A stretch of 36,025 nucleotides of DNA from a virus. Its lineage: Duplodnaviria; Heunggongvirae; Uroviricota; Caudoviricetes. Shown piece by piece: positions 28,601 through 31,600 of this stretch. A program made the position numbers. The stretch is from positions 1-36,025 of the IMG/VR virus record IMGVR_UViG_2522572021_000002. One strand, written 5' to 3'. Within the stretch, counting starts at the first letter, position 1. Each line of letters starts with the position of its first letter.

Positions 28601-31600
28601 CTGCTTCCCGGGAGGGCATTATGCCTGGTGATGAGAGCGGGCCTGAGCAAAATCACACAGACGATGGTGAGCAGTTGCACAACACTGATGCTACGGATGA
28701 TGTTAAAGCGGTCCGTGTGCGGAAATGCCTGCATGTGATGGGGTATTGCCCGGAGACAGGCCGTCCCGTTGAACTGACGTACCGGGGCATGCGTGTTCTG
28801 GTGCCATCACCACTGGCGACAGCCATGATACAGCACGGAACGGCTGAGCATGCGTGATTTTCAGAATGCCTTTGATGCTGCCCTTGCCGGGGTGGACAGC
28901 ACGATTGTTGAAGTGATGGGGCTCTGTGCGCAGTTCACCTCGGGGGCACAGTGTGGCAGCGAAGTTCAGGGGGTTTTTGACGATCAGCCGTTTGACCGGC
29001 AGATTGTTATTCCGGCGGTGGCATTCAGTGGCGCTAAGCATGAGAGAGAGCATACTGATATTTACTCCTCATGCCGTCTGATAGTGCGGAAAAACGGTGC
29101 TGAAATTTATAACCGTACCGCGCTGGATAATACGCTGATTTACAGTGGCGTTATTGATATGCCTGCCGGTCACGGTCACATGACGCTGGAGTTTTCGGTA
29201 TCAGCATGGCTGGTGAATAACTGGTATCCCACAGCAAGTATCAGCGATTTGCTGGTTGTGGTGATGAAGAAAGCCACCGCAGGCATCAGTATCAGCTGAA
29301 TTTTATAACCCATATACGGGCGCCAGAAATGGCGCCTTTTTTATTGCAGAAAAGCGAGAGGTAATTATGCGTAAACTTTATGCCGCCATTTTGTCCGCAG
29401 CCATTTGTCTGGCCGTATCCGGTGCGCCTGCATGGGCGTCTGAACATCAGTCCACGCTGAGCGCGGGGTATCTTCATGTCTCGACGAACGTTCCTGGCAG
29501 CGATGAACTGAACGGGATTAACGTGAAATACCGTTATGAGTTTACGGACACTCTGGGAATGGTGACGTCATTCAGCTATGCAGGAGACAAGAATCGCCAG
29601 CTGACCCGTTACAGCGATACCCGCTGGTTCAGCGTGATGGCGGGGCCGTCTGTGCGCGTGAATGAATTGTTCAGCGCGTATGCGATGGCGGGTGTGTCTT
29701 ACAGCCGTGTGTCGACTTTCTCCGGAGATTATCTGCAGGTGACCGACAACAAGGGGAAAACGCATGATGTGCTGACCGGAAGTGATGACGGTCGCCACAG
29801 CAACACGTCTCTGGCGTGGGGAGCTGGCGTGCAGTTTAACCCGACCGAATCCGTGGCCATTGATATTGCTTATGAAGGCTCCGGCAGTGGCGACTGGCGC
29901 ACTGACGGTTTCATCGTGGGTGTCGGTTATAAGTTCTGATTAGCCAGGTAACACAGTGTTATGACAGCCCGCCGGTTCAGGCGGGCTTTTTTGTGGGGTG
30001 AATATGGCAGTAAAGATTTCAGGTGTACTGAAAGACGGCACAGGAAAACCGGTAGAGAACTGCACCATTCAACTGAAAGCCAGACGGACCAGCAGCACGG
30101 TGGTGGTGAACACGGTGGCCTCTGAAAATCCGGATGAAGCCGGTCGTTACAGCATGGACGTTGAGTACGGTCAGTACAGCGTCATTCTGTTGGTGGAGGG
30201 CTTCCCGCCGTCACATGCCGGGACCATCACCGTGTATGAAGATTCTCAACCCGGTACGCTGAATGATTTTCTCGGTGCCATGTCGGAGGATGACGTCCGG
30301 CCGGAGGCACTGCGCCGTTTTGAACTGATGGTGGAAGAGGTGGCGCGTCACGCTGAGGAGGCGAAGAAGAATGCCGGAGAGGCGGAGACGTCAGCGAGGA
30401 ATGCCGGCATATCAGCCAGTCAGGCAGAAGAGAGCGCTGCAAATGCTGATACTTCAGCAGAGGATGCATCGGAGTCAGCCCGGCAGGCGGCAGAAAGTGC
30501 AGCCTCTGCAAAGAAGTCAGAGGAAGCGTCCTCGTCCTCAGCCTCTGAGGCCGCTCAAAAAGCCAGTGAGTCATTACAAAGTGCAACAGATGCCGAGTTG
30601 TCAAGAAAGACGGCAGAAAGTGCAGCCGGTAATGCATCCAGAGACGCAACGACAGCAACAGAAAAAGCCCGGGAGTCAGCAGAAAGCGCACAGTCAGCGG
30701 AACAAAGCAGGATAGCGGCGGAAGAGGCCGTAAACCGAATCCCCACCGTGGTGGGACCTCCCGGGCCAAAGGGGGAACAGGGGCCCGCGGGTCCTCAGGG
30801 GCCGAAGGGTGATAAGGGAGAGCGCGGTGACACCGGCCCTGTCGGGGCAACCGGCGAACGGGGACCGGCAGGTGATGCTGGTCCGGCAGGCCCGCAGGGG
30901 CCGAAAGGTGACATGGGAGAGCGGGGAGAGACCGGTCTGACGGGAAATGCAGGTCCACAGGGTCCAAAGGGAGATACCGGTGCGGCAGGCCCGGCAGGCC
31001 CACAGGGACCGAAAGGAGAAACAGGTGCGGCTGGCCCGGTGGGGGCAACCGCACCTCAGGGGCCGAAGGGCGACCCGGGGGAGACGCAAATACGGTTCCG
31101 TCTGGGGCCGGGAAACATTATTGAGACAAACAGCAATGGCTGGTTCCCGGATACAGATGGCGCACTCATCACCGGACTGACCTTTCTTGACCCCAAAGAT
31201 GCCACACGGGTTCAGGGGTTTTTTCAGCATTTGCAGGTCAGGTTTGGTGACGGGCCGTGGCAGGATGTCAAGGGGCTGGATGAAGTGGGCAGTGATACAG
31301 GCAGAACAGGAGAATGACATGAATATACTAAAAAAACTTATGCAGCGTCTGTGTGGTTGCGGAAAGCATGATGGCCGTGAACACGTGCAGTCGCTTACAG
31401 CACAACTGCGACTGGGGCCGGCAGACATCCTGGAGTCAGATGAGAATGGCATTATTCCGGAGCAGGACAGGGTAATCACACAGGTGGTGATACTGGATAC
31501 AGATAAAAAGCTGATACAGTGTGTGGTAAGACCGCTGCAAATCCTGCGTGCTGACGGGACGTGGGAAAATATTGGCGGGATGAAGTAACCCGACAGCTTC

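Follow-up and report, generated by a model that had tools for sequence, protein, structure and literature searches.

Why should a gene for a small relative of a tail fibre's C-terminal domain stand, as a separate reading frame, directly behind the gene for the fibre itself? The question is raised by IMGVR_UViG_2522572021_000002, a caudoviricete record of 36,025 nucleotides analysed over its whole length (hereafter the window), in which the side tail fibre gene stf (30004-31317, + strand; 437 aa) is separated by a single nucleotide from an 89-aa open reading frame (ORF), here called orf89 (31319-31588, +). The coordinates and ORFs are as an earlier note on this DNA gave them; it described orf89 as a standalone copy of the Stf C-terminal domain and proposed a duplicated tip or a chaperone module. 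The pair is already known, being a standard side-tail-fibre cassette of lambdoid prophages of the enterohaemorrhagic Escherichia coli (EHEC) type. The best explanation overall, to which we assign a probability of roughly 0.45, is that Stf is a fibre of the EPclA type and that orf89 is a non-stoichiometric fibre-accessory protein. New for orf89 are selection specific to its reading frame, a near-strict linkage of the intact gene at +1 nt, DNA too diverged for homologous recombination with the fibre knob, and trace peptides of a homologue in virions.

Stf has the anatomy that the earlier note ascribed to it, namely a lambda-type anchor, an Ala/Ser/Glu-rich linker and about 110 residues of Gly-X-Y triplets. 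Residues 1-133 (30004-30402, +) are a lambda-type side-tail-fibre N-terminal anchor (PfN), which matches PF08400 at E 3.3e-69 (231 bits against a cut-off of 26.6), and residues 1-93 match the PDB chain 9e7m_Ta, 'Tail fiber protein' (E 2e-51). Residues 134-250 (30403-30753, +) form a segment of 117 aa whose composition (A 29%, S 21%, E 15%; A+S+E 64%) marks it as the counterpart of the 'PCoil' of EPclA; by analogy with that homologue it is a putative trimeric coiled coil (PMC3368898). The collagen triple-helix region follows at residues 251-361 (30754-31086, +), with 111 residues in 37 Gly-X-Y triplets (PF01391, E 3e-17), and the PfC knob (Phage_fiber_C) occupies residues 363-426 (31090-31281, +; PF06820, E 4.9e-35, 120 bits against a cut-off of 25), leaving an 11-residue tail before the TGA stop at 31315-31317.

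EPclA of E. coli O157:H7 (for example ECs2717 of Sp14) has the same order of PfN, PCoil (about 116 aa), a single Col (111 aa) and PfC, the same Pfam families and the same length of 437 aa (PMC3368898), and it is nearly certain that Stf is a side tail fibre of this type. EPclA is a trimeric dumbbell in which the Gly-X-Y region is a true collagen helix that melts at 42 °C (the value for the Col-PfC fragment), and its PfC, a trimer by itself, can start the helix anew once this has been melted (Ghosh et al. 2012, PMC3368898). The homotrimer and the helix were established for recombinant ECs2717-type protein by size-exclusion chromatography with multi-angle laser light scattering (SEC-MALLS), analytical ultracentrifugation (AUC), circular dichroism (CD) and electron microscopy (EM); the downstream 89-aa gene is not mentioned in that paper (PMC3368898). 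Unlike EPclA, the window allele lies in a prophage without tail genes and carries Ala for Gly at position 350 (codon 31051-31053; GPVGAT-A-PQGPKG), the sole break in a series in which 36 of the 37 triplets have Gly in first position. Among 64 fibres examined this position is Gly in 63, with Ala in the window allele only. Glycine substitutions classically destabilise collagen helices. The Gly350Ala change may mark an orphaned copy that is starting to decay, or the fibre may be one used in trans by other prophages.

The orf89 reading frame runs from an ATG at 31319, after the single C at 31318, to a TAA at 31586-31588. A Shine-Dalgarno (SD) sequence, AGGAG (31308-31312, +), lies within the last codons of stf, 6 nt 5' of this ATG. 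The resulting junction, AGGAG-AA-TGA-C-ATG (stretch AGGAGAATGACATG), has identical geometry in lambda h434 and VT2-Sakai. The gene is translationally coupled to stf inside the late operon, between two terminators, and no promoter-like site was found upstream of it. Its first 27 residues (31319-31399, +) form an N-terminal leader with an invariant Cys12-Gly-Cys14 and variable residues 17-26; a short helix at residues 3-11 is predicted from a low-confidence AlphaFold2 model. Cys12, Cys14 and Cys68 are invariant in 34 distinct orf89 proteins. The remainder, residues 28-89 with the stop codon (31400-31588, +), is a free-standing PfC-type domain that spans all 64 positions of the PF06820 profile (1-64 of 64; E 1.8e-34, 118 bits against a cut-off of 25). 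The whole protein corresponds to PHROG 576 (positions 1-89 of 89, E 2e-58) and is named 'phage tail fiber C-terminal domain-containing protein' by the Prokaryotic Genome Annotation Pipeline (PGAP). At E <= 1, no Pfam, NCBIfam or PHROG match outside the PfC families was found, including none to the Tfa family (Caudo_TAP). Two other candidate assignments were tried and rejected. On inspection, a lipoprotein or signal peptide at MNILKKLMQRLCGCG lacks a hydrophobic core, has charges before the Cys and places the Cys too early; a place in a defence system found no match to any PADLOC model.

Homology of orf89 to the Stf C-terminal domain is supported by BLASTP, by the shared PF06820 domain and by a shuffle test. 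BLASTP paired orf89 with Stf residues 364-425 at 22/62 identities (35%, E 2e-11), and the Smith-Waterman score of 100 compares with 23 ± 4 (maximum 47-50) in 5000 shuffles of either partner (z = 18-19), none of which (0/5000) reached it. With 35% identity over 62 residues, the alignment is far above the shuffled controls against which the earlier note had wished it judged. At the DNA level, by contrast, the longest exact word shared by the two knob segments is 10 nt and blastn gave no significant alignment. Because the amino acid identity is only 35% and the DNA is not alignable, we take orf89 to be an old paralogue rather than a recent copy. The description as a standalone copy is therefore sound as regards homology, but its suggestion of a duplication that was local or recent does not hold: the gene belongs, as an old paralogue, to a fixed and widespread two-gene cassette. 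The orf89 protein and the fibre knob have only about 13-14 invariant positions in common, and tblastn found no further knob copies in the window.

We found that orf89 is under strong purifying selection specific to its own frame. All 84 of the full-length copies sampled are intact, and they comprise 58 DNA alleles and 34 distinct proteins. The ratio of nonsynonymous to synonymous substitution (dN/dS; Nei-Gojobori) is 0.126 for the whole gene, 0.088 for the knob part and 0.28 for the leader, while the same alignment read in two control frames gives 2.5 and 1.1. The proportions of synonymous (pS) and nonsynonymous (pN) differences are 0.12 and 0.016, and a pS of 0.12 is sufficient for the ratio to be meaningful despite the relatedness of the samples. 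The fibre's own knob has a dN/dS of 0.24, above that of the orf89 knob part; the value of 0.46 for the collagen block is not trusted, since length variants shift the repeats out of register. Moreover, orf89 stays intact even behind frameshifted fibre genes.

The linkage of orf89 to knob-ending fibres is nearly strict. Of 76 such fibres with enough downstream DNA, 74 are followed at +1 nt by an intact 89-aa ORF and the remaining 2 are frameshifted; conversely, 82 of 84 orf89 copies stand directly after a knob-coding end (intact or broken) and 2 after an insertion sequence (IS). The sampled loci are mostly closely related prophages of Shiga toxin-producing E. coli (STEC), so that these counts are not independent. 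Among 5426 complete E. coli genomes, 698 contain the gene, the median being 11 copies in each, and it is also present in 296 phage records, including lambda h434, lambda_2B8 and Stx1, Stx2a and Stx2c phages. The pair occurs in infective phages (lambda h434, lambda_2B8, long- and short-tailed Stx phages). Outside Escherichia, orf89 was seen only in Citrobacter rodentium, together with one distant metagenomic relative. A scan of species representatives gave no matches other than E. albertii and one contig of 725 bp that bears the name Xanthomonas pisi (L166, NZ_JPLE01000138.1); the latter encodes orf89 at 91% identity and is almost certainly E. coli contamination of the assembly.

The cassette is also found across tail types. 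The fibre of the podovirus Sp5 (VT2-Sakai) has a different N-terminus from the siphovirus-type Stf, yet the last 77 residues of the two, knob plus tail, are 98.7% identical. The orf89 proteins are 91% identical and share the stop-C-ATG junction, which argues that the end of the fibre and orf89 pass as one unit from one tail type to another. The same fibre end, orf89 and junction are present in Sp5 as ORF67/ORF68 and in phi24B as gp61/gp59; the podovirus fibre differs in having 645 aa, another N-terminal anchor and two collagen blocks (EPclB), and in that its docking site is the tail adaptor, not a lambda J tip. Other prophages carry the 3' half of orf89 a second time, as a partial copy of 81-90% identity that stands 0.7-1 kb further downstream, beyond an inserted cargo gene (L013, 3975-4096; L010, 4043-4137; also L007, L008, L012, L019, L041, L047, L065, L070 and L071); the window has none. 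The 3' end of orf89 seems to be a junction for cargo exchange. In lambda h434 imm21 (OM418627, L002 4448-7648), a classical hybrid phage of the laboratory, GenBank annotates NleB-, NleC- and NleH-like effector genes, intact or fragmentary, just after stf-orf89.

Remote relatives are few. Of 1.84 billion representatives searched with a profile, no more than 85 gave a match, nearly all of them Escherichia fragments or chimeras; three multi-stretch matches (P0245, P0258, P0260) look like low-complexity repeats and were discarded. A genuine distant relative is P0243 (L164 3505-5202), a metagenomic collagen-like fibre with four tandem units of about 80 residues, whose C-terminal halves are PfC-like (…VVVLDAD…GILxVRxADGTWxEIPA…) and which are joined by short Gly-X-Y spacers. 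These units indicate that PfC-like knobs can be internal, repeated beads in a fibre; the contig offered no useful gene context.

Is the small protein made, and is it part of the particle? The published virion proteome of phi24B (supplement to a cryo-EM preprint, bioRxiv 10.64898/2026.04.10.717836) contains two peptides unique to the gp59 homologue, ADGTWENIGGMK and VITQVVILDADKK. In our reading of an unlabelled column of the peptide table, each gp59 peptide has about 3 spectra, against 2267 for the fibre gp61, where by our own estimate from length scaling about 300 gp59 spectra would be expected if the two were equimolar. We conclude that the orf89-type protein is made but is at most a trace, sub-stoichiometric component of the virion.

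On the reading that we favour, Stf would be a trimeric dumbbell whose N-terminal anchor docks on the tail tip, whose coiled coil and collagen helix form the shaft, and whose small, all-beta C-terminal knob trimerises and nucleates the collagen helix. The orf89 protein, translated from its own SD and ATG in coupling to the end of stf, would most likely form a small oligomer of its own, probably a trimer by analogy with PfC. It would act on or with the fibre knob, either by aiding or regulating maturation of the knob and fibre inside the cell or as a loosely attached decoration of the fibre tip. It would not be a stoichiometric virion subunit, and its benefit would be felt on natural hosts rather than on K-12; this accessory mechanism is inferred. 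Purifying selection keeps the gene in a mobile collagen-knob-orf89 cassette.

Known systems offer partial parallels. In T4/T2 (gp37-gp38) and in Mu/P2 (fibre-Tfa), a small protein encoded downstream acts on the distal end of the fibre, and in some phages it stays on the tip; these helpers are not paralogues of the fibre C-terminal domain and are required for assembly. In contrast, orf89 is paralogous to the fibre knob and its Sp5 homologue is dispensable in the laboratory. The lambda pair Stf/Tfa (Ur-lambda) has the PF08400 anchor in common with the window, likewise follows J and lom in the operon, and also consists of a fibre gene with a small gene immediately behind it; it differs in that the shaft and tip of lambda Stf are not collagen and PfC, and in that Tfa is unrelated in sequence both to orf89 and to its own fibre.

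Several points weigh against an accessory role. AlphaFold2 gave no usable model of either orf89 (8-row alignment; predicted local distance difference test, pLDDT, 60.6) or the Stf knob (11 rows; pLDDT 44.6), a failure that the phi24B authors also report for the knob domain (bioRxiv 10.64898/2026.04.10.717836). Foldseek found nothing below E = 1 for the orf89 model in the PDB, where sequence and profile searches with the knob likewise gave no match. Recombinant EPclA forms collagen trimers without orf89 (PMC3368898). Sp5 ORF68, an 89-aa 'phage fiber C-terminus' polypeptide, was placed among the non-essential late genes, and its deletion had no reported plaque or lysogenisation defect on K-12 (Mondal et al. 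2016, PMC5155283). The trace gp59 peptides could be contamination, as the phi24B authors class Lom and Bor, present at similar levels, as contaminants; these authors also argue that the fibre tip does not bind BamA (bioRxiv 10.64898/2026.04.10.717836). In addition, co-inheritance of stf and orf89 is explicable by adjacency alone, and it was counted in loci that are mostly related. Lambda's own Stf is dispensable on K-12. For this reason, and because of the argument on BamA, the K-12 deletion result is weak evidence either way.

The main rival is a role independent of the fibre, which we consider unlikely. A small soluble knob-like protein would be produced late and set free by lysis, or else be produced in lysogens, and would by itself bind a ligand of the host or the environment. 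It could, for instance, cover a surface structure and thereby keep progeny phage from being lost to debris, or it could serve as a conversion factor; its adjacency to stf would reflect only their travel in one cassette. The infectivity of Sp5 without ORF68 and the mere traces of gp59 in virions fit this proposal, as do surface residues strongly unlike those of the fibre knob and the position of orf89 at the border of the effector 'moron' region. Against it, the protein has no signal peptide or lipobox, and its gene is translationally coupled to stf between two terminators in the late operon and has no promoter-like site upstream; no PADLOC defence model was matched, and the linkage at +1 nt to knob-ending fibres is strict in both sipho- and podoviruses.

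Mondal et al. suggested that the gene is a reservoir for fibre variation, that is, a spare knob that recombines into stf to vary the tip (PMC5155283), and the duplicated tip of the earlier note may be taken in the same sense. The partial orf89 3' copies downstream of cargo show that the region recombines, and a chimera does exist: in P0185 (92 aa), on a single NCBI contig, residues 1-40 of orf89 run on into the C-terminal half of the knob of Stf. The junction is out of register, with 10 residues missing, and P0185 is a rare product of illegitimate recombination or else an artefact of assembly. Shared exact words of at most 10 nt are far below what RecA or Red-type recombination needs, and none of the 76 knob-ending fibres (0/76) carries an orf89-type knob. 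A silent spare would need no conserved SD, ATG or 27-residue leader, nor a dN/dS of 0.13 in its own frame, and peptides of the phi24B homologue were detected. An exchangeable or silent spare is thus improbable, given the lack of homologous DNA, the gene's own start signals, selection in its own frame and the absence of its knob from fibres.

A different way of varying the tip would be for one cassette to supply two: orf89 would be joined to some fibres by low-level recoding at GAA-UGA-C-AUG, or would enter or cap the knob trimer. This is a long shot; if it were true, one prophage would display two receptor specificities. Recoding as such, in which some ribosomes shift at the stf stop (GAA-UGA-C) into orf89 and produce a tandem-knob fibre beside the normal one, is highly improbable. 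Both the offset of 1 nt and the weak context of the stop (UGA-C) are conserved, a -2 slip (GAA to GAG) would, judging from the sequence, preserve cognate pairing, and P0243 offers a precedent in its four tandem knob-like units. The orf89 frame is also open for 44 codons upstream, but by a rough estimate of ours this has a chance of about 17%. GAA-UGA-C is no canonical slippery motif, and Mondal et al. found no frameshift signal either (PMC5155283); the strong SD and ATG fully account for independent initiation. The phi24B authors had added hypothetical gp61-gp59 fusion entries to their search database, labelled 'Spike or just gp59?' (bioRxiv 10.64898/2026.04.10.717836). In the part of their peptide table examined, no junction peptide is present for the two fusion models that they entered. 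Counts for the fusion entry exceed those for the fibre entry in sample EA1829 only, which we take to be a low-molecular-weight gel slice because other small proteins peak there.

A chaperone was the other proposal of the earlier note; in its strong form this would be an obligatory assembly chaperone, equivalent to lambda Tfa or T4 gp38. The position of orf89 directly after the fibre gene is like that of tfa, no alternative chaperone candidate is present in the cassette, and the lambda h434 record (GenBank OM418627) names the product 'tail fiber assembly chaperone'. In general form the proposal is unproven; as an essential factor it is largely refuted and very improbable. The protein has no similarity to Tfa, its sole Pfam match at E <= 1 being PF06820. 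EPclA expressed alone trimerises and forms its collagen helix, and PfC alone is a trimer (PMC3368898). Deletion of Sp5 ORF68 leaves the phage infective, whereas deletion of the fibre does not (PMC5155283). Finally, that orf89 is a relic without function, left by an ancient duplication or exchange of modules and retained only through linkage, is hardly credible: it has no known phenotype and the window prophage is decaying (IS elements, an inversion, deleted tail genes), but 84/84 full-length copies are intact, even behind frameshifted fibres, and 58 alleles (pS 0.12, pN 0.016) give a dN/dS of 0.126 in the annotated frame only.

What remains of the phage around the pair? The window DNA is 100% identical to positions 837137-873161 of the E. 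coli O145:H28 RM12581 chromosome, from whose PGAP annotation the gene names are taken, and it holds a heavily degraded lambdoid prophage adjoining ybhC. The region is, with near certainty, the distal end of an EHEC-type lambdoid late operon: a J remnant, lom, stf, orf89, a terminator and the type III effector cargo nleH and cif. FI (28474-28857; PF14000) lies immediately 5' of an ORF at 28850-29299 (+) in which about 35 unrelated N-terminal residues, from an upstream gene, are joined to the last ~114 residues of the tail-tip protein J. Residues 36-149 of this ORF match PF12421 (Ig_GpJ_C, E 1e-31), and PGAP names it 'phage tail tip protein, missing N-terminus'. It is a deletion scar, left by the loss of every tail gene that lay between FI and the end of J, from Z up to and including most of J itself; Z, U, V, G, T, H, M, L, K and I are annotated nowhere in the window. 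As the earlier note had stated, the prophage is therefore without its tail genes, FI being followed by the C-terminal remnant of J and then by lom, with no other tail gene annotated in the window. Since these genes are deleted, stf and orf89 cannot act in cis here. The pair is orphaned, and at most usable in trans by the other lambdoid prophages of the genome; a lom-stf-orf89 query found 13 matching places in RM12581.

A terminator-like hairpin stands between the J remnant and lom. The lom gene itself, for an Ail/Lom outer-membrane protein (29367-29939, +; PGAP; PF06316, E 3.5e-105), precedes stf in lambda-type late operons. Between lom and stf is a second terminator-like hairpin (29966-29987, +), with an 8-bp stem of which 7 pairs are GC, followed by the T-run TTTTTGTGGG. 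The stf-orf89 unit is closed ahead of the cargo by a strong hairpin at 31603-31633 (+), intrinsic-terminator-like, with an 11-bp stem and then UUUUUGUUGU; its minimum free energy of -21.7 kcal/mol (z = -4.5) was equalled by 0/200 shuffles. The type III effector genes nleH (31694-32575) and cif (32799-33626), both annotated by PGAP, come next. Past the effector genes lies a remnant of tfa, the lambda-type tail-fibre assembly gene (34326-34406 in the window; 6307-6546 of L167 in lambda_2B8). The place of this remnant puts the cargo between orf89 and the former tfa. It looks as if an ancestral stf had lost its 3' part, and tfa its 5' part, to the collagen-knob-orf89 cassette together with the cargo.

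Decay is seen elsewhere in the prophage as well. The phage lysozyme gene is in two pieces (5531-5941, -, and 19194-19292, +), each abutted by one of two inverted copies of a single IS3-family element (4283-5496, +; 17927-19140, -), an arrangement that indicates insertion of an IS and then inversion of some 13.6 kb of prophage DNA. The terminase large-subunit gene (21751-23678) is annotated as frameshifted, a further sign that the prophage cannot make particles.

In summary, the question of orf89 has been narrowed to a protein that is selected and expressed, that is not a recombination spare and not essential, and that is not stoichiometric in virions. Its cassette is present about 11 times per genome in E. 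coli of the Shiga-toxin and attaching-effacing kinds, and is found as well in the phages by which stx and genes for type III effectors are spread. Because the cassette is so widely carried, the ligands of the fibre tip and of its small partner bear on the host range of toxin-converting phages.

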